Sequence record: OZ035798.1
DNA from: Vectrevirus LI10P3
Length of the DNA stretch: 44,918 nt
Strand: one strand, 5' to 3'
Part shown: positions 4,422 to 21,290 of the stretch, in pieces
How the letters are laid out: each line of letters starts with the position of its first letter
Numbering within the stretch: position 1 is the stretch's first letter
The notes under the pieces: generated by a model
The model's database searches: none
What the model was told of the DNA's origin: nothing
Seen by the model: only the letters and a program-made list of their open reading frames with translations
Translations under genes and position numbers: made by a program

Positions 4422-6320
4422 ATGGCTAAATTAACCAAACCTAATACTGAAGGAATCTTGCATAAAGGACAATCTTTGTATGAGTACCTTGATGCGAGAG
4501 TTTTAACATCAAAGCCGTTTGGTGCTGTAGGTGACGCCACTACTGATGATACGGAGGTTATAGCTGCTTCATTAAACTCTCAGAAAGCTGTCACAATCTC
4601 AGACGGTGTATTCTCTAGCTCTGGTATTAATAGTAATTACTGTAACTTAGACGGTAGGGGTAGTGGGGTGCTAAGTCACCGTTCCAGTACAGGTAACTAC
4701 TTAGTATTTAACAACCCACGTACAGGTCGCTTAAGTAATATTACGGTAGAAAGTAATAAGGCGACTGATACAACTCAGGGACAGCAGGTATCTCTTGCTG
4801 GTGGAAGTGATGTTACTGTAAGTGACGTTAACTTCTCAAACGTTAAAGGTACTGGTTTCAGTTTAATCGCATACCCTAATGATGCGCCACCTGATGGACT
4901 TATGATTAAAGGCATTCGAGGTAGCTATTCAGGCTATGCTACTAATAAGGCAGCCGGATGCGTACTTGCTGACTCCTCAGTTAACTCCCTCATAGATAAC
5001 GTCATTGCTAAGAACTACCCTCAGTTCGGAGCAGTAGAGTTGAAAGGTACAGCCAGTTACAACATAGTCAGTAATGTTATAGGGGCAGATTGCCAGCATG
5101 TAACTTACAACGGCACTGAAGGGCCAATAGCTCCTTCTAATAACCTTATCAATGGGGTGATGGCTAATAACCCTAAGTATGCAGCGGTTGTTGCAGGCAA
5201 AGGAAGTACGAACTTAATCTCAGACGTGCTCGTAGATTACTCAACTTCTGATGCTAGGCAGGCTCATGGTGTTACAGTAGAGGGTTCTGATAACGTCATA
5301 AATAATGTGCTTATGTCAGGATGTGATGGTACTAACTCTTTAGGACAAGGGCAGACTGCTACAATTGCACGCTTTATAGGTACAGCTAATAACAACTATG
5401 CGTCTGTATTTCCTAGCTACAGTGCTACAGGTGTTATTACTTTCGAATCCGGCTCTACCCGTAACTTCGTAGAGGTAAAGCACCCTGGCAGGAGAAACGA
5501 CCTTCTCAGTTCTGCTAGTACTATTGACGGTGCAGCTACTATTGACGGCACTAGTAATAGTAACGTAGTGCACGCACCTGCCCTAGGGCAGTACATAGGT
5601 AGTATGTCAGGTAGGTTCGAATGGCGGATTAAGTCCATGTCACTCCCTTCAGGCGTTCTTACTTCTGCTGATAAGTACAGAATGCTTGGAGATGGTGCTG
5701 TGTCATTAGCTGTAGGTGGGGGCACTTCTTCTCAAGTTCGCCTATTTACTTCTGATGGTACTTCTCGGACAGTGTCCCTCACCAACGGTAACGTGCGTCT
5801 TTCTACCAGTAGCACAGGCTTTTTGCAGTTAGGTGCTGATGCAATGACCCCAGACAGTACTGGTACATACGCATTAGGTTCCGCCAGTCGAGCATGGTCT
5901 GGCGGTTTTACTCAAGCAGCATTCACTGTTACCTCAGATGCTCGGTGTAAAACAGAACCTCTTACTATCTCAGATGCCTTACTAGATGCTTGGTCTGAAG
6001 TTGACTTTGTGCAGTTTCAGTATTTGGATCGTGTTGAGGAGAAGGGTGCAGACTCAGCTAGATGGCACTTTGGCATCATCGCTCAGCGAGCTAAGGAGGC
6101 CTTCGAACGTCACGGTATAGATGCACATCGCTATGGCTTCTTGTGCTTCGACAGTTGGGATGATGTATACGAGGAAGATGCCAATGGCTCTCGTAAACTG
6201 ATTACACCAGCAGGTTCCCGCTACGGTATTCGTTACGAGGAAGTACTGATATTAGAGGCTGCGTTGATGCGGAGGACTATTAAGCGTATGCAGGAAGCAC
6301 TAGCTTCCCTGCCTAAGTAA
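4422..6320 (+). CDS. Tailspike 1: beta-helix depolymerase with C-terminal intramolecular chaperone (S74-like) domain
   Basis: ATG 4422; N-terminal FGAVGDATTDDTEV pectate-lyase-like motif; Ser/Thr/Gly/Asn-rich core; C-terminal ~128 aa starting at SDARCK (nt 5934). Confidence 0.85.
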   Translation: MAKLTKPNTEGILHKGQSLYEYLDARVLTSKPFGAVGDATTDDTEVIAASLNSQKAVTISDGVFSSSGINSNYCNLDGRGSGVLSHRSSTGNYLVFNNPRTGRLSNITVESNKATDTTQGQQVSLAGGSDVTVSDVNFSNVKGTGFSLIAYPNDAPPDGLMIKGIRGSYSGYATNKAAGCVLADSSVNSLIDNVIAKNYPQFGAVELKGTASYNIVSNVIGADCQHVTYNGTEGPIAPSNNLINGVMANNPKYAAVVAGKGSTNLISDVLVDYSTSDARQAHGVTVEGSDNVINNVLMSGCDGTNSLGQGQTATIARFIGTANNNYASVFPSYSATGVITFESGSTRNFVEVKHPGRRNDLLSSASTIDGAATIDGTSNSNVVHAPALGQYIGSMSGRFEWRIKSMSLPSGVLTSADKYRMLGDGAVSLAVGGGTSSQVRLFTSDGTSRTVSLTNGNVRLSTSSTGFLQLGADAMTPDSTGTYALGSASRAWSGGFTQAAFTVTSDARCKTEPLTISDALLDAWSEVDFVQFQYLDRVEEKGADSARWHFGIIAQRAKEAFERHGIDAHRYGFLCFDSWDDVYEEDANGSRKLITPAGSRYGIRYEEVLILEAALMRRTIKRMQEALASLPK

Positions 6321-6327
6321 GCAACAG

Positions 6328-6350
6328 GCAGTGCGTAAGCACTGCTTTTC
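6328..6350 (+). terminator. Stem-loop with T-run after tailspike 1
   Basis: GCAGTGC-gtaa-GCACTGC followed by TTTT. Confidence 0.5.
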
Positions 6351-6405
6351 ACGCAACTTTTCTTAAAGGTTATCATGGTGGTAGCCTTTCAGAAGAGGAG
6401 GTTAC

Positions 6406-8118
6406 ATGCTTCAAAGATTAAGTGCTTACTTGGTGAAGTACAAGAGTAAACTAACAGGTACTATTGAGCGCCTGCTATCTGATAAACTATCGGATACAAT
6501 AGATGTTGCGGATTTTGGAGTTACTCCATCTTCCAATGACAACAGGCAAGCACTTCAAGCTGCGTTCAATGCAGTCAGAGTGTTAGGCGGTGGCACTGTA
6601 TTAGTCACTAAAGCTGGAAAATACAAACTCAGTGGTACTGTTGAGATATTTGCTAATACACACTTCAAGGTTGCTAAAGGTGTAACATTTGTACGTGACT
6701 ACGAAACAGGAGATACGCTATTCAGATTATCACAAGGGCAAGCTAGTAATGTAACAGTCAGTGGAGGTATCTATGAAGGCAATGGTCACACTAAGGGAGA
6801 TACACCTTTTGTAGTATTTGCATCTACTAGTAATAATGATTTGAAGTTTGAAGGCATAACAGTTAACAATGTAGTGGACTACCACGCCATAGATTTAGCA
6901 GATTGGAACAACGTAGTTATTCGTGATTGTAAATTCCTAGGTTTTAAGAATACAGGCAGTCGTAACTTCTCAGAGGCTATACAGTTAGACCCAGGTCTTA
7001 TTACAGTTGGTCACTATGTACAGTCAAGTGGTATGCTGGTGGAGAATTGCTATGCTGGTCCAAACACAGAATCAGGGTTTGGAGGTTATGGTGCACTAAT
7101 TGGAAATCACGCCTCAGCTTACGGTGTACAGGACAACAATATCCGTATCTTGAATTGCACTACAGATGGTGCTCTCTTTGCAGGTGTACGTGTATTTAAC
7201 TGGAAAAACTGGACAGTGCGTGGTTGCACATTTAGGAACTCTAATGCAAGAGGTGTCCATGTTACACCTTTCTCATCTCAGACTAAACCGCAGGGTACTC
7301 GACAAGGTAGTATTGTAGATTGCACTTTTGATGGCGTAAGGACACCAGTGCTAATTGCTGCACCATCTTGGCCTTTTACCGATATTAGTGACATTTGGCA
7401 TGACCATATTGAAATTTCTAATAATACTATGATCCTCACAGAGGATGTATCCTATGGTGTAGATGCAAGGTGGTGTAAGAATTTAATTGTAAAAGGTAAT
7501 ACAGGCTCTGGTGGCTTAGGGTTAATAGGTTTACGCTTTGGGACAAAATACCACATCGAAGGTAATACTTGGGAAAACGGAAGAGGTAGTGGGATTTGGC
7601 TAGGTGAGTCTGATGCTACTACATTCATTGGTACTGGTTTATCAGGAGAAGGTATACTTAGTCGTAATATCTTCTCTAAATTAGGGCAATATGGTATTCA
7701 TGTAAACTGCAAGGCTAGCGGTCTAGTGATTAAAGCCAATAATATGAAGGAGGTATCTACAGATGAAGCAGGTAGGCACTTCATTAGTATAGACACAGGG
7801 GCTAACAACATCCTAGTAGAAGGTAATATTGGAGTAGATGGAGAAAGCCCTAACAAGCCAAGCCTTGGTATTCGTGTTACTTCTTCTTGTTCCAATATTA
7901 AACTCATTGGCAATGATTGCTATGGCACACAGGCGCCTCAGAATAACCAAGGAGTCGGTTCTAGTACGGTGATTGTTTATGGACTAAATGGCAACCCTAC
8001 AACTTTAGGCGTAGGTGCACCTGTAGGCTCTTTAGCAACTGATATCAATGGTTCTGGTGGTAGTACATTGTACGTTAAAGAATCTGGTACATCTGCTCAA
8101 GGTTGGGTTGCAAAGTAG
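6406..8118 (+). CDS. Tailspike 2: pectate-lyase-superfamily beta-helix depolymerase
   Basis: 570 aa; GAGGAGG RBS; N-terminal DVADFGVTPSSNDNRQALQAAFNA motif; repetitive Gly/Asn-rich beta-helix-like sequence. Confidence 0.8.
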   Translation: MLQRLSAYLVKYKSKLTGTIERLLSDKLSDTIDVADFGVTPSSNDNRQALQAAFNAVRVLGGGTVLVTKAGKYKLSGTVEIFANTHFKVAKGVTFVRDYETGDTLFRLSQGQASNVTVSGGIYEGNGHTKGDTPFVVFASTSNNDLKFEGITVNNVVDYHAIDLADWNNVVIRDCKFLGFKNTGSRNFSEAIQLDPGLITVGHYVQSSGMLVENCYAGPNTESGFGGYGALIGNHASAYGVQDNNIRILNCTTDGALFAGVRVFNWKNWTVRGCTFRNSNARGVHVTPFSSQTKPQGTRQGSIVDCTFDGVRTPVLIAAPSWPFTDISDIWHDHIEISNNTMILTEDVSYGVDARWCKNLIVKGNTGSGGLGLIGLRFGTKYHIEGNTWENGRGSGIWLGESDATTFIGTGLSGEGILSRNIFSKLGQYGIHVNCKASGLVIKANNMKEVSTDEAGRHFISIDTGANNILVEGNIGVDGESPNKPSLGIRVTSSCSNIKLIGNDCYGTQAPQNNQGVGSSTVIVYGLNGNPTTLGVGAPVGSLATDINGSGGSTLYVKESGTSAQGWVAK

Positions 8119-9039: not shown

Positions 9040-9180
9040 ACGTGTACCTTAGGTTATTCCTTGATGGATAGCTTAGGTTAGCCTTAGTGGATTACCTTAG
9101 TTAAAGCCTTAGTGCTTCACTTAGTATCCGCTTAGTAGTGTACCTTAGTAAGTCTTAGTGTCTTCTCTTAGTGATTGCAC
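9040..9180 (+). repeat. Array of short direct repeats, CTTAGT(G/A), at least 10 copies
   Basis: Irregularly spaced CCTTAGT/CTTAGTG copies; extra copies at 8845-8925 and 9316-9500; analogous to the heptamer arrays next to T7 terminal repeats. Confidence 0.6.
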
Positions 9181-9369
9181 ATGCAAGCATGTAAGATGCC
9201 ATTAGGTCGCGGTCGGTAGACCGCTAAAGAAGAAGTATAGTAATAAGATGCAGTAGGAGGAACACCAGAAACCTAGCCAACCTAGCCTATCCTAGCTCTG
9301 CATCTATTGCTTTTCCTTAGTCTCACATGTTAGACAACCTATCTTATTCTTAGTGATGATAACTTAGTG

Positions 9370-12158: not shown

Positions 12159-14786
12159 ATGCAAGACCTACACGCTATTCAACTTCAACTTGAAGAAGAA
12201 ATGTTTAACGGCGGTATCCGTCGCTTTGAAGCGGACCAACAACGCCAGATTGCATCCGGTAATGAATCAGACACGGCATGGAATCGCCGCTTATTGTCCG
12301 AGTTAATCGCGCCAATGGCTGAAGGTATTCAGGCTTATAAGGAAGAGTACGAAGGCAAGCGCGGTCGTGCACCACGTGCATTGGCTTTCATTAACTGCGT
12401 AGAAAATGAAGTGGCAGCGTATATCACGATGAAGATCGTAATGGATATGCTTAACACTGATGTAACCTTGCAAGCTATCGCTATGAATGTAGCTGACCGC
12501 ATTGAGGACCAAGTGCGCTTCAGTAAACTAGAAGGCCATGCAGCTAAATATTTTGAGAAGGTCAAGAAGTCACTTAAGGCAAGTAAGACTAAATCATATC
12601 GCCATGCGCACAACGTAGCGGTCGTGGCTGAGAAGTCAGTAGCTGACCGTGACGCTGATTTCTCTCGCTGGGAAGCGTGGCCTAAAGATACCTTGCTACA
12701 AATTGGGATGACCTTGCTTGAAATCTTAGAGAATAGCGTATTCTTCAACGGGCAACCTGTCTTCCTCCGCACCTTGCGCACTAATGGCGGCAAACATGGT
12801 GTTTACTACCTACAGACTAGCGAACACGTGGGTGAATGGATAACTGCATTTAAAGAGCACGTAGCTCAGCTGAGTCCAGCCTATGCGCCTTGCGTGATTC
12901 CTCCTCGTCCGTGGGTGTCACCTTTTAATGGCGGTTTTCACACTGAGAAGGTGGCAAGCCGTATTCGTCTGGTTAAAGGTAACCGCGAGCACGTCCGCAA
13001 GCTGACCAAAAAGCAAATGCCAGCGGTTTACAAGGCTGTTAACGCCTTACAAGCTACTAAGTGGCAGGTTAACAAGGAAGTATTGCAGGTAGTAGAAGAT
13101 GTTATTCGTCTAGACCTCGGTTATGGTGTACCTTCCTTTAAGCCGCTCATTGACCGCGAGAACAAACCAGCTAACCCTGTTCCTCTTGAGTTCCAGCACC
13201 TGCGAGGCCGTGAATTGAAAGAGATGCTAACACCGGAGCAATGGCAGGCCTTCATCAACTGGAAGGGTGAATGTACTAAGCTGTATACCGCTGAGACTAA
13301 GCGCGGCAGCAAGTCGGCGGCGACCGTCCGCATGGTAGGACAGGCCCGTAAATACAGCCAGTTTGACGCTATTTATTTTGTATATGCACTGGACAGCCGT
13401 TCACGCGTTTATGCGCAATCTAGCACGCTCTCGCCGCAATCAAACGACTTAGGCAAGGCATTGCTCCGTTTTACCGAAGGGCAGCGTCTTGATAGCGCTG
13501 AGGCGCTTAAGTGGTTTTTGGTGAACGGGGCGAATAACTGGGGTTGGGATAAGAAAACTTTTGACGTGCGCACCTCTAACGTGCTGGATGGCGAATTTCA
13601 AGACATGTGCCGCGACATTGCAGCCGATCCGCTGACCTTCACTCAATGGGTAAATGCCGACTCCCCTTACGGCTTCCTTGCATGGTGCTTTGAATATGCG
13701 CGTTATCTGGATGCACTGGATGAAGGCACGCAAGACCAATTCATGACGCATCTACCCGTCCATCAAGACGGTAGTTGCTCTGGTATCCAGCACTATAGCG
13801 CGATGTTACGCGATGAAGTAGGTGCGAAAGCAGTAAACCTTAAGCCCTCTGACTCTCCTCAAGATATTTATGGTGCCGTTGCGCAGGTAGTAATTCAGAA
13901 GAACTATGCATACATGAATGCAGAGGATGCGGAAACCTTCACTTCTGGCAGCGTGACTTTAACAGGTGCGGAGCTGCGTAGTATGGCTAGTGCGTGGGAT
14001 ATGATAGGAATCACTCGCGGCCTGACCAAAAAGCCCGTAATGACACTACCTTATGGCAGCACACGTCTAACCTGCCGTGAGTCAGTGATTGATTATATCG
14101 TTGATTTAGAAGAAAAAGAGGCCCAACGGGCTATTGCGGAAGGGCGTACCGCCAATCCTGTACACCCTTTTGATAATGACCGTAAGGACAGCCTGACACC
14201 TAGCGCAGCTTATAACTATATGACAGCTTTAATCTGGCCTTCTATTTCGGAAGTGGTTAAAGCTCCTATAGTGGCAATGAAAATGATTCGTCAGCTTGCA
14301 CGTTTCGCAGCTAAAAGGAATGAAGGCTTAGAGTACACCTTGCCTACTGGCTTCATCTTGCAACAAAAGATAATGGCGACAGATATGCTCCGCGTATCTA
14401 CTTGCTTGATGGGAGAAATCAAGATGAGTCTACAGATTGAAACGGACGTAGTGGATGAAACGGCTATGATGGGCGCTGCTGCCCCTAACTTTGTGCACGG
14501 TCATGATGCCAGTCACCTTATCTTAACGGTCTGCGACCTTGTTGATAAAGGGATTACATCTATCGCAGTAATTCATGATTCTTTTGGCACTCATGCAGGT
14601 CGCACCGCAGACCTACGTGATAGTCTAAGGGCAGAAATGGTGAAGATGTATCAAGGCCGTAACGCTCTGCAAAGCCTGTTAGATGAGCATGAAGAACGCT
14701 GGTTAGTAGACACCGGAATCCAAGTGCCAGAGCAAGGAGAGTTTGACCTTAACGAAATCTTAGTATCTGACTATTGCTTCGCATAA
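12159..14786 (+). CDS. Single-subunit DNA-dependent RNA polymerase (T7/SP6 gene 1-like)
   Basis: 875 aa; [52 protein letters not shown] and HDSFGTHAG motifs; C-terminal ...CFA. Confidence 0.95.
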
Positions 14787-14794
14787 TATTAATA

Positions 14795-14824
14795 GGCCAT
14801 TCCTTCGGGAGTGGCCTTTCTTTT
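14795..14824 (+). terminator. Stem-loop with UUCG tetraloop and T-run after the RNAP gene
   Basis: GGCCATTCC-ttcg-GGAGTGGCC then TTTCTTTT; could alternatively be an RNase III-type site. Confidence 0.5.
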
Positions 14825-14858
14825 ACCTACTACCGGTAACATTTCATTAACATAAAGT

Positions 14859-14874
14859 GTCTCACATGTGAGAC
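14859..14874 (+). repeat. Conserved palindrome GTCTCACATGTGAGAC, copy 1
   Basis: Perfect 16 bp palindrome abutting the promoter at 14877. Confidence 0.7.
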
Positions 14875-14876
14875 TT

Positions 14877-14899
14877 ATTTACCGGACACTATAGGATAG
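14877..14899 (+). promoter_or_regulatory. Phage RNAP promoter variant (ori-associated A)
   Basis: ATTTACCGGACACTATAGGATAG. Confidence 0.6.
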
Positions 14900-14947
14900 C
14901 CGTCGGAGACGGGAAAGAAAGGGGAAGATAAAGGATATAAAAAGGAA

Positions 14948-14994
14948 GTAATAGGTATTAAAGGCTATATAGGTTATCTAGGAATACCTATTAC
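14948..14994 (+). promoter_or_regulatory. Large hairpin
   Basis: GTAATAGGTATT ... AATACCTATTAC, perfect 12 bp stem with 23 nt loop. Confidence 0.45.
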
Positions 14995-15000
14995 CTTCTT

Positions 15001-15029
15001 CCTTCCTCTTATTACTACTTAGAGGAAGG
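15001..15029 (+). promoter_or_regulatory. Hairpin
   Basis: CCTTCCTCT-tattactactt-AGAGGAAGG, perfect 9 bp stem. Confidence 0.4.
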
Positions 15030-15042
15030 GCAGATCTAGGTT

Positions 15043-15058
15043 GTCTCACATGTGAGAC
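15043..15058 (+). repeat. Conserved palindrome GTCTCACATGTGAGAC, copy 2
   Basis: Perfect 16 bp palindrome a few nt upstream of the promoter at 15064. Confidence 0.7.
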
Positions 15059-15063
15059 TTCGT

Positions 15064-15086
15064 ATTTACCGGACAGTATAGATAAG
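15064..15086 (+). promoter_or_regulatory. Phage RNAP promoter variant (ori-associated B)
   Basis: ATTTACCGGACAGTATAGATAAG. Confidence 0.5.
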
Positions 15087-15111
15087 ACTAACTTACTTTG
15101 GAGATTTAACC

Positions 15112-15240
15112 ATGCGTAACTTTGAGAAGATGACCCGTAAAGCTAACCGTTTTGACATGGAAGAAGGGCAGAAGAAAGGCAAGAAGCTGAATAAACCTGT
15201 CCGTGACCGTGCATCTAAACGCGCTGCGTGGGAGTTCTAA
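15112..15240 (+). CDS. gp1.1-like small basic protein (42 aa)
   Basis: MRNFEKMTRKANR...KLNKPVRDRASKR matches recalled T7 gp1.1; GGAG RBS; below the 60 aa cut-off of the ORF track. Confidence 0.6.
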   Translation: MRNFEKMTRKANRFDMEEGQKKGKKLNKPVRDRASKRAAWEF

Positions 15241-15243
15241 GTT

Positions 15244-17232
15244 ATGGCTATTATTCAGAATGTACCGTGTCCTGCCTGTCAAAAGAATGGACATGATATT
15301 ACTGGCAACCATCTTATGATATTTGAGGATGGCGCTGGTTACTGTAACCGTGGTCACTTCCATGATAATGGGAAGCCTTATTACCATAAGCCAGAGGGTG
15401 GCATCGAGATAACCGAGTTACCTATTACTGGCAATATCAAATATACACCTTCTCAATTCAAAGAAATGGAGAAGGAAGGGAAGATAAGCGACCCTAAGCT
15501 ACGCGCCATCGCTCTTGGTGGTATGCGTATGAAAGACCGTTGGGAGGTCATGAATGAGCAAGAAAGGGCAGACCAAGAAGCAGAGTGGAAACTTGATGTT
15601 GAATGGTTCCTCACGCTTAAGCGTAAGAACCTTGTATCCCGTCACATTCGAGGTGACATCGCAGCAATGTACGATGTGCGCGTTGGACACGATGAAGAGG
15701 GAAGAGTCAACCGTCACTATTATCCACGATATGAAAAGGGTGTGCTTGTTGGGGCAAAATGCCGGACGTTGCCGAAGGATTTTAAGTTCGGACACCTAGG
15801 TAAACTCTTTGGTATGCAAGATCTTTTCGGTATGAACACTTTGTCTCACGTGTTAGACAAGGGAAGACGAAAGGATTGCTTGCTTATTGTAGGCGGTGAA
15901 CTTGATGCACTAGCAGCGCAGCAGATGCTCCTTGATTCTGCCAAGGGTACTAAGTGGGAAGGCCAGCCATACCATGTATGGTCTGTCAACAAAGGCGAGT
16001 CTTGTCTTGAAGAGATAGTGCAAAACCGTGAGCATATCGCCCAATTCAAGAAGATTATATGGGGTTTTGATGGAGATGAGGTAGGGCAGAAGCAGAATCA
16101 GCAAGCGGCTCGCCTGTTTCCTGGCAAATCCTATATCCTTGAATACCCCTCTGGTTGCAAAGATGCTAACAAGGCATTGATGGCTGGCAAGGCCAAAGAG
16201 TTTGTTGATGCATGGTTTAATGCCAAGTCATCTGATGAAGTCTTTGGTAGCCAGATTAAATCTATCGCCTCTCAAAGGGATAAGCTCAAGGCTGCACGTC
16301 CAGAGCAAGGACTATCATGGCCTTGGCCTAAGCTGAACAAGGTAACGCTAGGTATTCGTAAGAACCAACTTATCATTGTAGGCGCAGGCTCTGGTGTAGG
16401 TAAGACTGAGTTCCTTCGTGAAGTAGTTAAGCACCTCATTGAAGAACACGGTGAATCTGTAGGCATCATTTCTACAGAAGACCCGATGGTCAAGGTGTCC
16501 CGTGCTTTTATCGGCAAGTGGATTGATAAGCGTATTGAGTTACCGCCAACCAACGACCCTAAAGAAGACGGATACCGTGAGGTGTTCGACTACACCGAGG
16601 AAGAAGCTAACGCCGCCATTGATTATGTAGCTGATACAGGTAAGCTGTTTGTAGCTGACCTAGAGGGTGACTATTCGATGGAAAAGGTAGAGCAAACTTG
16701 CCTAGAGTTTGAGGCTATGGGTATTTCTAATATCATCATTGATAACTTAACGGGGATTAAATTAGATGAGCGTGCTTTTGGTGGGAAGGTTGGTGCACTT
16801 GATGAATGCGTCAAGCGGATTGGTACTATCAAAGACCGACACCCGGTTACTATATTCCTTGTATCACACCTTACACGTCCTCCGGCAAACCGTACCCAAC
16901 ACGAAGAAGGTGGCGAAGTTATCCTTTCTGACTTCCGAGGCTCAGGAGCTATCGGATTCTGGGCATCTTACGCCTTGGGGATTGAGCGTAACACAAGAGC
17001 TGAAACGCTTGATGAAAGAACTACCACGTACATCTCATGTGTCAAAGACCGCGACCAAGGTATCTGGACTGGAACCAAGGTCATGCTTAAGGGTGACATT
17101 CAAACCGGACGTTTAATGGAACCACAAGCCCGTACTAAGTCATTTGATACAGGTGAAGCAAGGCAACAAGAAGTACCAGATTTACCGGACACTATAGAAG
17201 AGACTAACTTCGATGAAGAAAGTGAGTTCTGA
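15244..17232 (+). CDS. DNA primase/helicase (gp4-like)
   Basis: N-terminal zinc-binding CPACQ...CNRGH; Walker A GAGSGVGKT; acidic C-terminus FDEESEF. Confidence 0.9.
   Translation: MAIIQNVPCPACQKNGHDITGNHLMIFEDGAGYCNRGHFHDNGKPYYHKPEGGIEITELPITGNIKYTPSQFKEMEKEGKISDPKLRAIALGGMRMKDRWEVMNEQERADQEAEWKLDVEWFLTLKRKNLVSRHIRGDIAAMYDVRVGHDEEGRVNRHYYPRYEKGVLVGAKCRTLPKDFKFGHLGKLFGMQDLFGMNTLSHVLDKGRRKDCLLIVGGELDALAAQQMLLDSAKGTKWEGQPYHVWSVNKGESCLEEIVQNREHIAQFKKIIWGFDGDEVGQKQNQQAARLFPGKSYILEYPSGCKDANKALMAGKAKEFVDAWFNAKSSDEVFGSQIKSIASQRDKLKAARPEQGLSWPWPKLNKVTLGIRKNQLIIVGAGSGVGKTEFLREVVKHLIEEHGESVGIISTEDPMVKVSRAFIGKWIDKRIELPPTNDPKEDGYREVFDYTEEEANAAIDYVADTGKLFVADLEGDYSMEKVEQTCLEFEAMGISNIIIDNLTGIKLDERAFGGKVGALDECVKRIGTIKDRHPVTIFLVSHLTRPPANRTQHEEGGEVILSDFRGSGAIGFWASYALGIERNTRAETLDERTTTYISCVKDRDQGIWTGTKVMLKGDIQTGRLMEPQARTKSFDTGEARQQEVPDLPDTIEETNFDEESEF
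17180..17202 (+). promoter_or_regulatory. Phage RNAP promoter inside the helicase 3' end
   Basis: ATTTACCGGACACTATAGAAGAG. Confidence 0.6.
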
Positions 17233-18552: not shown

Positions 18553-18757
18553 ATTAAGCAAGGTTTGCTCTTGCGGTAAAGGTTATCGCAGTCGTATTGA
18601 TGGTAAGTGTGGGCATTGCAGGTCTAAGAAAGAGGCTGCTTTGTTTGATAAGTACCACAATGAATTAGCATATAACTATCCTCATCTAACACCTAATTCT
18701 TTATTAGGACTTGGTTATAGGGTTAAATACTTTGGAGCAATCTATGAAATCAATTGA
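18539..18757 (+). CDS. Small zinc-ribbon-like protein (72 aa)
   Basis: CSCGKGYRSRIDGKCGHC; overlaps the DNA polymerase start. Confidence 0.45.
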   Translation: MKTIKLSKVCSCGKGYRSRIDGKCGHCRSKKEAALFDKYHNELAYNYPHLTPNSLLGLGYRVKYFGAIYEIN

Positions 18758-21290
18758 TTGGAAGAAGGAGGCAGAAGGTCGTATCCTCGTGATGGATGCG
18801 GAAGCTAAAGGACTCCTTGACGCTATCCGATATGGACACCGTGAAGATGTGCATATCATTTGCTGCATGGATTTGCTTACTACCGAGGAGTTTCTCTTCT
18901 TTGACCCGTATGAGATGCGTGACCCTGAAGCAAGAGAACGCCTGAAGGAATGGGAAGGTCATCAAGACGGAACCTTGGTTGATGGTGTTAACTTCCTGAA
19001 GCATTGTGAAGCTATTGTGTCACAGAACTTCCTAGGGTATGACGGACTTCTCTTTGAGAAAGCATTCCCTGATATTTGGAAAGGCTTTAACTATACCGAG
19101 AAGCGCGGTAAGGGCAGACTCCGTGCTGACCTGTGTCCGGTGCGAGTCATGGATACGCTGGTGATGAGTCGCCTGTTAAACCCCGATAGACGCCTTCCTC
19201 CGCAAGCATATGCCAAAGGTATGGGTAACGTCGCCCCTCACTCAATTGAGGCGCACGGCATCCGTATAGGCCGCTATAAACCGGAGAACGAGGACTGGTC
19301 TAAACTAACTGACCACATGGTTCACCGTGTACGTGAGGACGTGGCGATTGGTCGTGACTTGTTCCTCTGGCTCTTTAACGGGGAATGGATGGAGCACAAA
19401 CGCCGTGGCGTGAATAAACGCACTGGCCTAGGTATTGAGACAGCCTTCCACATGGAGTCCATTGTGGCGCTGGAGATGAGCCGTCAGGCAGAGCGTGGAT
19501 TCCGTCTGGATATTGACAAAGCACTAGCGCGATGCGAAGAACTGGACGCTAAGATTGACGAGACAGTCGCAGCGTTCCGCCCTCACATGCCTATGCGTAT
19601 CAAGTCTAAGCCTTTTAAACCGGAAGAAAAGAATGAAGTATGCCAACGCGCAAATGAGTATGGAGCTAGCAACAATATACCTACTGTCCTTGACCCCTCA
19701 CACTTTCTTCATGCCGAGAGACGAGGAGATCGCAAGACAGTATGGAGTGTCACTACTAAGTCTGGTGATTGGTCGGCTAGTGTCAAGAAAGACTTTCCTC
19801 ACCTTAGAGGAAACCGTAATGACACGCCAAGCATCAAGTGGATTGGCGCTTACTCGCCTGTTACTTTCGAAGAGATTCCCTTGGGTAACAGGGATACAGT
19901 TAAGCAAGTGCTCTATGAGTATGGATGGAAAGGTGTTGAATTTAACGATACCGAGCAAGCTCATCTCGATGAGCACGGAGTGTTACCAAAACCTTGGAGT
20001 GGTAAGATAAATGAAAAGTCCCTCACTTTATGGCAAGAAAGAGCCGCACGTGAAGGTAAAACAGTCCCTGATTGGTGCTTGGGTATCGCTGCATGGTACA
20101 TACTCGTATCCCGTCGTGGTCAGATACTCAACCGTGGTGACGTTGAAGCCTTCAACGAGAAGGGAACGTGGCCCTCGCAGGCTGGTGTACGAAAGTGTCG
20201 CGGCCTTGTACCTGTAGCATTCAACAAGGAGCTAGGAATCAATGCGCAGCAATACTACGAGAGGTACGGATGTTGGCCTACGTCTGACAAAGATGACGGA
20301 GAGTGGCGTGTTCCAGCTGTTGCTATTAGTATTGGCACTTCTACGTTCCGTATGCGTCATCGTAATGTGGTTAATATTCCTGCCCGTGGCTTGTATCCTT
20401 TACGTGATTTATTCATAGCAGGGAAAGGCAAGCTAATCCTTGGTTGTGACGGTGCAGGTCTTGAACTGCGTGTCCTGTCTCACTTCATGAATGACCCTGA
20501 GTACCAAGAGATTGTACTGCACGGTGATATTCATACGCATAACCAGATGAAGGCTGGTCTTCCTAAGCGTGATATGGCGAAGACGTTTATATACGCCTTC
20601 CTCTATGGTTCTGGTATAGCCAACCTTGCAGCAGTCTGCGGTGTTACTGAGGAAGAAATGAAGGAAGTTGTGGCAAGATTCGAGATTGAACTACCGTCTC
20701 TTGCACGTCTTCGTGAGAATGTTATCGCACAAGGTAACAAGTTTGGCTACCTGCAAGCACCTGATGGGCATTGGGGTCGCATCCGCATGTCTGGTGGTGA
20801 ACTTAAAGAGCACACGATGCTTAACGTATTACTCCAGATGACTGGCTCTTTGTGTATGAAATATGCACTAGTCAAGGCATTTGCAGTAATGCGCAAGGAA
20901 GGTGTAGCTTTGGATGCTATGGGAAATCCTTGTGGTGTGGCTAACGTGCATGATGAAATCCAGATGGAAGTTCCTGAAGAGGAGGTCTTGTATCTTAACT
21001 ACGACCTACCTTTCACCTTAGATGGGTTCGAAACAGAGAAGGCTGCTGTGAAAGCAGTTTTCGATGCAGAGGAGAAACGTGTTCATGTGGATTCTGAAGG
21101 ACGTATGTGGTCTGCTGCAAACCTCGTTAGCGTTGATGCTGATGCTGGTGTATTGCATTGCCAGCGCCGTTATCACCGTGCAGGTCATATCATTGCCGAC
21201 GCCATGACTTGGGCAGGGCAGTATCTGAAGATGCGTTGCCCGATGGCAGGAGAATATAAGATTGGCGCAAGCTGGAAGGAAACACACTGA
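18744..21290 (+). CDS. DNA polymerase, family A (gp5-like)
   Basis: ATG 18744 with GGAG RBS; motif B RDMAKTFIYAFLYGSG; motif C VANVHDEIQMEV; N-terminal exonuclease-like LVMDAEAKG. Confidence 0.9.
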   Translation: MKSIDWKKEAEGRILVMDAEAKGLLDAIRYGHREDVHIICCMDLLTTEEFLFFDPYEMRDPEARERLKEWEGHQDGTLVDGVNFLKHCEAIVSQNFLGYDGLLFEKAFPDIWKGFNYTEKRGKGRLRADLCPVRVMDTLVMSRLLNPDRRLPPQAYAKGMGNVAPHSIEAHGIRIGRYKPENEDWSKLTDHMVHRVREDVAIGRDLFLWLFNGEWMEHKRRGVNKRTGLGIETAFHMESIVALEMSRQAERGFRLDIDKALARCEELDAKIDETVAAFRPHMPMRIKSKPFKPEEKNEVCQRANEYGASNNIPTVLDPSHFLHAERRGDRKTVWSVTTKSGDWSASVKKDFPHLRGNRNDTPSIKWIGAYSPVTFEEIPLGNRDTVKQVLYEYGWKGVEFNDTEQAHLDEHGVLPKPWSGKINEKSLTLWQERAAREGKTVPDWCLGIAAWYILVSRRGQILNRGDVEAFNEKGTWPSQAGVRKCRGLVPVAFNKELGINAQQYYERYGCWPTSDKDDGEWRVPAVAISIGTSTFRMRHRNVVNIPARGLYPLRDLFIAGKGKLILGCDGAGLELRVLSHFMNDPEYQEIVLHGDIHTHNQMKAGLPKRDMAKTFIYAFLYGSGIANLAAVCGVTEEEMKEVVARFEIELPSLARLRENVIAQGNKFGYLQAPDGHWGRIRMSGGELKEHTMLNVLLQMTGSLCMKYALVKAFAVMRKEGVALDAMGNPCGVANVHDEIQMEVPEEEVLYLNYDLPFTLDGFETEKAAVKAVFDAEEKRVHVDSEGRMWSAANLVSVDADAGVLHCQRRYHRAGHIIADAMTWAGQYLKMRCPMAGEYKIGASWKETH

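Follow-up and report, generated by a model that had tools for sequence, protein, structure and literature searches.

The gap between the RNA polymerase gene and gp1.1 of an SP6/K1-5-type phage corresponds to the T7 gene 1-gene 1.1 gap and is a candidate replication origin

The non-coding gap between the single-subunit RNA polymerase (RNAP) gene and the gp1.1 homologue of the phage Vectrevirus LI10P3 (sequence record OZ035798.1) is the early-to-middle transcription switch of this SP6/K1-5-type phage, and it is also the best candidate for its replication origin. The stretch of DNA that was analysed, hereafter referred to as the window, has 44,918 bp and is a whole Vectrevirus (K1-5/K1E-like) genome, in which the gap occupies positions 14787-15111 (325 bp). 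Alignment with T7 shows that it corresponds to the region between gene 1 and gene 1.1 of that phage, and the resemblance is real homology, with the promoters arranged differently. By analogy with T7, we put at about even the chance that the gap is a T7-type, transcript-primed primary replication origin. A specialist would expect an origin beside the RNAP gene, and the sequence is already found in public genomes (K1-5, K1E and others), essentially unannotated in the gap; the regulatory annotation in public records is limited to one predicted terminator (MK373771). What is new is the T7 homology with its different promoter arrangement, a phased array of short motifs, and the density of constraint across the gap.

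SP6, K1-5 and K1E are in wide use, with SP6 RNAP serving as a standard reagent and K1-specific phages finding application in therapy and engineering. Here, we describe a precise, testable origin candidate in a densely constrained 325-bp non-coding module, including an array without a T7 counterpart. If the gap is indeed an origin, it would provide a second orthogonal pair of phage origin and RNAP for plasmid and continuous-evolution systems like those based on T7, and it would separate the essential from the lineage-specific parts of a transcript-primed origin. The features of the gap and its two boundaries are as follows.

12159-14786, plus strand: single-subunit RNAP gene, 875 amino acids; open reading frame (ORF) with Pfam matches RNA_pol and RPOL_N, annotated as gp7 in K1-5; left boundary.
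14794-14825, plus strand: intrinsic terminator, 10-bp hairpin AGGCCATTCC-TTCG-GGAGTGGCCT followed by the T-run TTCTTTTA.
14822-14853, plus strand: nearly invariant block of 32 nt, TTTACCTACTACCGGTAACATTTCATTAACAT, between the terminator and palindrome copy 1.
14859-14874, no strand assigned: palindrome copy 1, GTCTCACATGTGAGAC, 2 nt upstream of P1; matches SP6 6093 in position.
14877-14899, plus strand: SP6-type promoter P1, ATTTACCGGACACTATAGGATAG; +1 at 14894; initial transcribed sequence GGATAG.
14900-14912, plus strand: 5'-proximal hairpin H1, CCGTCGGAGACGG (CCGTC-GGA-GACGG), 13 nt, +7 to +19 of the P1 transcript.
14919-14982, plus strand: phased array; its seven (A/T)AGG motifs start at 14919, 14931, 14942, 14952, 14961, 14970 and 14979.
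14942-15000, plus strand: long imperfect hairpin H2 with 18-nt arms, a perfect 12-bp core and a 23-nt apical loop.
15001-15029, plus strand: hairpin H3, CCTTCCTCT/AGAGGAAGG, perfect 9-bp stem 15001-15009/15021-15029.
15030-15032, plus strand: sole GCA triplet of the gap (both strands counted; there is no TGC), a genome-wide minimum.
15043-15058, no strand assigned: palindrome copy 2, GTCTCACATGTGAGAC, 5 nt upstream of P2; matches SP6 6264 in position.
15064-15086, plus strand: SP6-type promoter P2, ATTTACCGGACAGTATAGATAAG; +1 at 15081; start GATAAG; C-to-G at -5.
15100-15104 and 15112-15240, plus strand: ribosome-binding site GGAGA and gp1.1 homologue; right boundary.

An earlier note on this DNA had described a non-coding interval of ~290 bp at this place. 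The interval is there, and it is longer: 325 bp separate the end of the RNAP gene at 14786 from the ORF start at 15112. Two tandem variant promoters that depart from the consensus in the initiating region, as the note had it, were found, with P1 beginning GGAT and P2 beginning GATA and carrying the C-to-G change at -5. A copy of the palindrome precedes each of them, and the two perfect hairpins that had been claimed, with stems of 12 bp and 9 bp, correspond to H2 and H3. The purine-rich tract is equally real; the 60-mer from 14905 is 85% purine, the highest value in the genome (z ~4.6), and it begins at +12 of the P1 transcript. The terminator hairpin (14794-14817), H1 (14900-14912) and the ~10-nt repeat structure of the purine tract had gone without mention.

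The case for an origin starts from T7, where gene 1 ends at 5822, phi1.1A lies at 5848, phi1.1B at 5923, and gene 1.1 starts at 6007. The primary origin of T7 consists of phi1.1A and phi1.1B, and a T7 promoter is required by every T7 origin (PMC8373140; PMC12796468). That transcripts prime the DNA polymerase of T7 was also found in the literature, and T7 transcripts have specific sites at which RNase III processes them (PMC6938266). The likeness of our gap to this origin has several parts. It lies between the same two genes, RNAP and gp1.1. It has two rightward phage-RNAP promoters that are off the late consensus in the initiating region, an AT-rich tract of ~60 bp just downstream of a promoter, in a weaker form than in T7, and homologous replisome genes nearby. 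Of the two, only T7 has a demonstrated origin activity.

Local alignment of the two gaps paired GAGTGGCCTTTCT--TTTACCTACTACCGGT of the window with GAGTGGCCTTTATGATTGACCTTCTTCCGGT of T7 at a score of 31, against 17.8 +/- 2.3 for shuffled sequences, and none of 500 shuffles scored as high. The similarity is limited to the terminator hairpin and the block that follows it, the first half of which (in 14822-14853) aligns with T7 GACCTTCTTCCGGT; the promoters and the AT-rich tract are not covered. In both phages the aligned segments fold alike, into a 10-bp tetraloop hairpin, a U-rich stretch and a small second hairpin. The T7 hairpin, located between phi1.1A and phi1.1B, has the form GGUCAUUCG-CAAG-AGUGGCC and resembles the window terminator, GGCCAUUCC-UUCG-GGAGUGGCC, in sequence and in fold. 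We take this T7 hairpin to be the R1.1 RNase III site at nt 5887 of Dunn and Studier (1983). Its counterpart in the present phage lies upstream of both promoters, has a T-run and is terminator-like, while H2, which holds the inter-promoter position, is unrelated to it in sequence. This suggests that the R1.1 hairpin (T7 5848-5912) and the window terminator (14787-14860) are one ancestral element, now a processing site in one phage and a terminator in the other.

Because the terminator hairpin and the block align with the spacer between phi1.1A and phi1.1B, P1 occupies the position of phi1.1B, and the tract after P1 that of the AT-rich origin core of T7. A start with GGA and, after it, a short hairpin are common to P1 and phi1.1B. 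The order of elements in T7 is phi1.1A, hairpin, phi1.1B, AT tract and gene 1.1, while here it is terminator hairpin, P1, AT tract with the array, long hairpins, P2 and gene 1.1; the distance between P1 and P2 is 187 bp, compared with 75 bp between phi1.1A and phi1.1B. T7 has neither the phased (A/T)AGG array nor a palindromic hairpin element before its promoters. The interpretation in the earlier note is supported in part. Its argument from position gains from the gp1.1 homologue, the significant alignment, the AT-rich 61-mer and purifying selection, and is stronger than its author could know. The parallel drawn with phi1.1A/B fails as a one-to-one equivalence of the promoters, since the order of the elements differs.

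The gene at the right boundary strengthens the correspondence. The 42-residue ORF at 15112-15240 has 56% identity to T7 gp1.1 and matches Pfam PF08200 with 58.6 bits (E = 8e-16); judged by its sequence, it is a genuine homologue of gp1.1. Locally, the RNAP gene is followed by the gap, the gp1.1 homologue, primase/helicase (15244-17232) and DNA polymerase (18711-21290). A megablast search with 14400-15500 matched ~100 phage records, the best of which were Vectrevirus genomes at 99.5% identity, with K1-5 at 94.7%. The window is a circular permutation relative to K1-5, such that the K1-5 position equals the window position minus 8858.

To follow the gap through related phages, it was aligned from ten annotated phages and also extracted from 25 IMG/VR loci. 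Its identity is 92-99% within Vectrevirus and ~70% to SP6 and Klebsiella phages, with the same architecture. This architecture is kept in Vectrevirus, Zindervirus (SP6), the Klebsiella clade and three distant lineages (L029; L030/L031; L032-L034), which have 72-77% identity in the C-terminus of RNAP. The conserved order is a covarying terminator hairpin, the palindrome, P1, H1, the AGG array, a long hairpin, P2, and the ribosome-binding site with gp1.1. Among 11 Vectrevirus relatives the gap is 95% identical, with every sub-element at 91% or more, compared with 78-79% at third codon positions in the RNAP and primase genes on either side, which indicates strong purifying selection over the entire 325 bp. 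The block at 14822-14853 is almost invariant in Vectrevirus, Zindervirus and the Klebsiella phages and is not present in L029-L034.

The terminator is the first element of the switch. The hairpin 14794-14817, directly after the RNAP gene, is followed by the T-run TTCTTTT and qualified as an intrinsic terminator in the scan; its fold has a z of -4.15, and its stem covaries across genera and lineages, where four forms were seen in the gap alignment and the IMG/VR loci. It probably ends an early operon that contains the RNAP gene and is transcribed by the host RNAP. In ULINTec4 (MZ997839), positions 330-555 inside the T-run of this terminator consist of ~230 nt of nearly pure poly-T annotated as a protein-coding gene, which is most likely an assembly artefact.

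At the level of sequence, the predicted promoters P1 and P2 are two of the 12 matches to the phage's own promoter consensus in the window, where 0.01 would be expected by chance. The other promoters mostly start with GAAG or GAAC. The class ATTTACCGG, to which the promoters at 14877, 15064 and 17180 belong, precedes replication genes, and the class A(T/A)TTACTGG (2658, 4320, 21573, 22342, 23571 and 32367) precedes later genes. P1 is kept in all six lineages. Furthermore, every lineage has a second promoter, which is off consensus at -5 to -1 by different substitutions in four lineages; such repeated departure fits a weak, poorly clearing promoter.

The leader of P1 begins with H1, for which RNAalifold predicts five pairs with the consensus CCNTC-GRA-GANGG. 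Its middle pair is GC in 16 sequences, AU in four and UA in two, with a CG variant in L027. By its predicted structure, H1 probably stabilises the P1 transcripts as mRNA. The array follows, overlapping both the purine-rich tract and the AT-rich 61-mer. Its seven (A/T)AGG motifs in 75 nt, where 0.87 would be expected, are the unique maximum of the genome. Every one of the six lineages has five to seven such motifs, some of them CAGG in the most distant lineages. The spacing is 9-12 nt in the window and mostly 8-11 nt elsewhere, apart from a single gap of 21 nt in L031, at which one unit is absent. Differences between lineages come as whole units, namely 11-13 nt that SP6 and the Klebsiella phages lack when aligned with Vectrevirus, and a 10-bp duplication in ULINTec4. 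The ~10-bp period suggests a property at the DNA level, such as binding along one face of the helix, or bending. Tandem Repeats Finder reported no repeat in 14780-15120 because the array is too degenerate. Two candidate explanations of the array were rejected: CsrA-type GGA sites, as the motif is mostly AGGT (AGGU) outside Vectrevirus, and promoter-decoy repeats, as the motif remains unchanged when promoter specificity changes between lineages.

The AT-rich tract after P1 (14925-14985) has 73.8% A+T, is the most AT-rich 61-mer of the region and stands at the 99.7th percentile of the genome (z = 2.9). The corresponding places have 72.1% A+T in SP6 and, after phi1.1B, 78.7% in T7 (z = 4.6). H2 is formed from the second half of the array paired with the following pyrimidine tract; its perfect 12-bp stem, 14948-14959/14983-14994, extends to 18 nt at 89% complementarity. 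A long hairpin of unrelated sequence is predicted at the position of H2 in all 12 lineages tested (z -1.0 to -4.6). By its predicted fold and by analogy, H2 is probably an RNase III-type processing site that has the role of R1.1 in T7. Sites of this type in mRNAs of the T7 group are irregular double-stranded hairpins of ~20 bp, cut by the RNase III of the host. The SP6 equivalent of H3 is 7 bp. RNAalifold on a MAFFT alignment of 24 leaders recovered only H1; since the central hairpins are misaligned between genera, no formal covariation is claimed for H2 and H3. Among these 24 sequences, which are not independent, the plus strand folded better than the minus strand in 18, by only ~2 kcal/mol. 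A scan of 14700-15300 against Rfam with E up to 10 gave chance-level matches only.

These elements could work together as follows. The terminator would end the RNAP operon, and P1 and P2, probably the nearest phage promoters of strong consensus on the downstream side of the RNAP gene, would restart rightward transcription into gp1.1 and primase/helicase. Their transcripts would cross the AT-rich tract, which in Vectrevirus is extremely purine-rich and has GG clusters every ~10 nt on the non-template strand, and with this composition an RNA-DNA hybrid would be expected to persist there. Rightward extension of the hybrid by the phage DNA polymerase could then follow, with P1 transcripts and perhaps abortive or short products of the weakened P2 as primers. 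The displaced strand would load primase/helicase and set up the leftward fork, as at phi1.1A/B of T7, and the same P1 and P2 transcripts would double as mRNA. Transcript-primed or R-loop origins include ColE1 RNA II and oriF and oriG of phage T4, and GG clusters on the non-template strand favour R-loops. The gap resembles those origins in having a promoter followed by an RNA-like strand rich in purines and G clusters; it differs in that the purine bias is extreme in Vectrevirus only, and in that the RNA-DNA hybrid is a predicted one here.

Several points weigh against an origin in the gap. Our search of the literature found no replication data or origin mapping for SP6-like phages, and according to a second-hand statement the DNA polymerase gene is the site of a proposed origin of SP6 (PMC4837284, quoting Dobbins 2004). 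Every element of the gap is explicable by transcription, mRNA processing and gene expression alone. The two promoter pairs are not equivalent, as P2 has no counterpart in T7 and phi1.1A has none here. The AT-rich tract is less extreme than that of T7 (74% vs 79%), and the extreme purine bias is specific to Vectrevirus, without a counterpart in SP6. Hairpins at the 5' end follow most other promoters of the window too, so H1 is not peculiar to P1, and the palindromes occur genome-wide and are not specific to an origin. Moreover, in PST_H2, a viable phage, the latter half of the array, H2 and H3 have given way to an HNH gene (after about four units). Insertions and a replacement of this kind in relatives imply that the full spacer is not strictly essential.

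Two lines of evidence that looked favourable were discarded and are to be counted on the same side. Cumulative GC skew rises genome-wide, with a slope of ~0.026/nt to the left and ~0.053/nt to the right of the region, and its detrended minimum falls at 14893, at the P1 start site (at 6690 in SP6). The break was rejected as evidence for an origin, as it coincides with the early/middle boundary and T7 has no break at its known origin. The primase of SP6 recognises 5'-GCA-3' (PMC2034472, PMC5737085), a specificity known for SP6 only, and the T7 origin contains a single primase site (PMC2910064). The scarcity of GCA in our gap is explained by its local dinucleotide content (shuffles average 1.5; P = 0.55), and the GCA at 15030 lies outside the AT tract and is missing in the Klebsiella clade and in BP12B.

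The strongest rival is that the gap controls gene expression and nothing else, which we consider possible, at appreciably less than an even chance. The terminator, the two middle promoters and a structured leader, with a 5' stabiliser hairpin, an RNase III-type processing site and hairpins at the 3' end, would set the level and timing of gp1.1 and primase/helicase, while replication would start elsewhere, for example at another promoter, at the genome ends or near the DNA polymerase gene. Much of the structural evidence suits this explanation: the covarying terminator stem, the covariation of H1 as an RNA hairpin, the long hairpin that is predicted at one position in 12 lineages although the sequence there has turned over, the better folding of the plus strand in 18 of 24 sequences, and the 5' hairpins at most other promoters. 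The cutting of T7 transcripts by RNase III at specific sites (PMC6938266) is in keeping with it, as is the second-hand report of a proposed SP6 origin near the DNA polymerase gene (PMC4837284). In addition, P1, P2 and the 17180 promoter share the ATTTACCGG class and so have the look of a regulatory class, and HNH genes located behind P1 or P2 in relatives use them as plain promoters. However, a leader has no obvious need for AGG motifs phased at 10 nt that evolve by indels of whole units, and the AT-rich tract right after the promoter, as in T7, is left unexplained. The strand preference in folding is small (~2 kcal/mol), and the fold of the window's own leader is weak (z -1.0 to -1.7). As the T7 gap serves both roles, a role in expression does not exclude one as an origin.

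The array invites three further readings. It might, possibly together with the GTCNNAC..GTNNGAC hairpin element, be a recognition platform for a factor that licenses initiation, in place of bare T7-like transcript priming; we consider this unlikely. The primase/helicase itself might be that factor, or else a phage protein, perhaps gp1.1, which is small and basic and is encoded beside the array. Somewhat less probable still is a discrete non-coding RNA of ~165 nt, transcribed from P1 at 14894 up to the palindrome-2 hairpin. The exposed AGG motifs of this RNA would be sites at which the ribosome or an RNA-binding factor is bound or titrated. The whole spacer between P1 and P2 is strongly conserved, and the conserved 5' hairpin, the single-stranded AGG array and then H2, H3 and the palindrome at the 3' end would suit such an RNA, but no Rfam family matches the region, the palindrome has no U-run in any lineage and is followed directly by promoter P2, and palindrome 2 is not present in L029-L034. 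The predominance of AGGU over GGA outside Vectrevirus speaks against CsrA-type sites, and a 10-nt period has no obvious meaning for a single-stranded RNA. The least probable, and in our view a very doubtful one, is an iteron-type origin, in which a dedicated initiator encoded by the phage would bind the array, possibly along with the palindromes, and melt the AT-rich tract. Five to seven direct repeats, unique in the genome, with a spacing of ~10 bp near the helical repeat, a conserved phase and indels of whole units, adjoined by inverted repeats and an AT-rich tract, speak for it. On the other hand, the units have only 4-6 conserved bases, Tandem Repeats Finder reports nothing, and half of the array is missing from PST_H2. 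Annotation and Pfam reveal no initiator gene among the neighbours, and we know of no initiator-like gene in this well-studied phage gene set; the homologues of this replisome in T7 need no dedicated initiator. Finally, the palindromes occur at 8-9 genome sites, and two variants coexist in one genome.

The palindromes, which the earlier note had made part of its origin picture, are present as described, but they are a genome-wide element and not specific to the origin. The window has eight copies with at most two mismatches (9320, 14859, 15043, 15843, 17254, 18398, 23540 and 40554), where 0.28 would be expected. SP6 has nine copies of GTC(C/T)AAC-RY-GTTGGAC (493, 6093, 6264, 7071, 8547, 9383, 14255, 17752 and 30569), eight of which match window copies in gene-order position; the Vectrevirus form is GTCTCAC-AT/GT-GTGAGAC. 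Copy 2 is 100% conserved in the 11 Vectrevirus relatives and is not present in L029-L034. Between lineages, positions 4/5 covary with 13/12, and in L029 the centre has 3 nt instead of 2 nt. The copies located after genes (17254, 18398 and 40554) have seven further flanking pairs, which differ between copies and phages yet are complementary, and a U-G wobble occurs on the plus strand in seven of the nine copies in SP6. In both SP6 and PST_H2, the copy located at the left end of the genome is inverted. These patterns indicate a hairpin, in RNA most likely, at the borders of transcription units, and it may be a 3'-end, processing or pause signal. Seven SP6 RNAP terminators have been counted, some within 14 bp of a start site (PMC11347151), and some of these may be the palindrome element.

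Two other interpretations of the palindrome fared less well. That of an operator for a genus-specific factor is weakened by the coexistence of both variants in the PST_H2 genome and by the 3-nt centre in L029. That of a relic T7 promoter in the left arm (GTCTCAC vs GACTCAC, compared by hand) was rejected, the resemblance being not above chance once the anchor bases were discounted. A literature search for the palindrome strings found no paper. One copy, 15843-15858, lies inside the primase/helicase coding sequence, 599 nt from its start and at the same offset as in SP6 (7071), and PST_H2 also has a copy inside its primase gene (34749). The arm of this in-gene copy is of the Vectrevirus type in the window and PST_H2 and of the SP6 type in SP6, and the residue encoded is His in the window and Asn in SP6.

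HNH homing-endonuclease genes have inserted repeatedly around the gap, at different points in each phage. Besides the case of PST_H2, an HNH gene lies between P2 and gp1.1 in UAB78 and after gp1.1 in BP12B; VEc3 has an HNH endonuclease gene in the gap too, with an extra ~420 bp near the gap end. In the SP6 RefSeq record NC_004831, gene SP6p09 (6271-6468, 65 amino acids) has its annotated start inside palindrome 2 and spans promoter P2. This start is probably wrong, because the conserved 42-residue gp1.1 ORF begins at 6340. Near the K1-5-type left genome end, the window has ~12 CTTAG(T/G) repeats at 9040-9175, one every 9-12 nt. Three CCTAGC repeats (9270-9296) come next, then the palindrome copy that starts at 9320; a promoter of sigma-70-like form, TTGACA...TAATAC, follows at ~9370. 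These left-end arrays recall the short repeats that adjoin the terminal repeat of T7.

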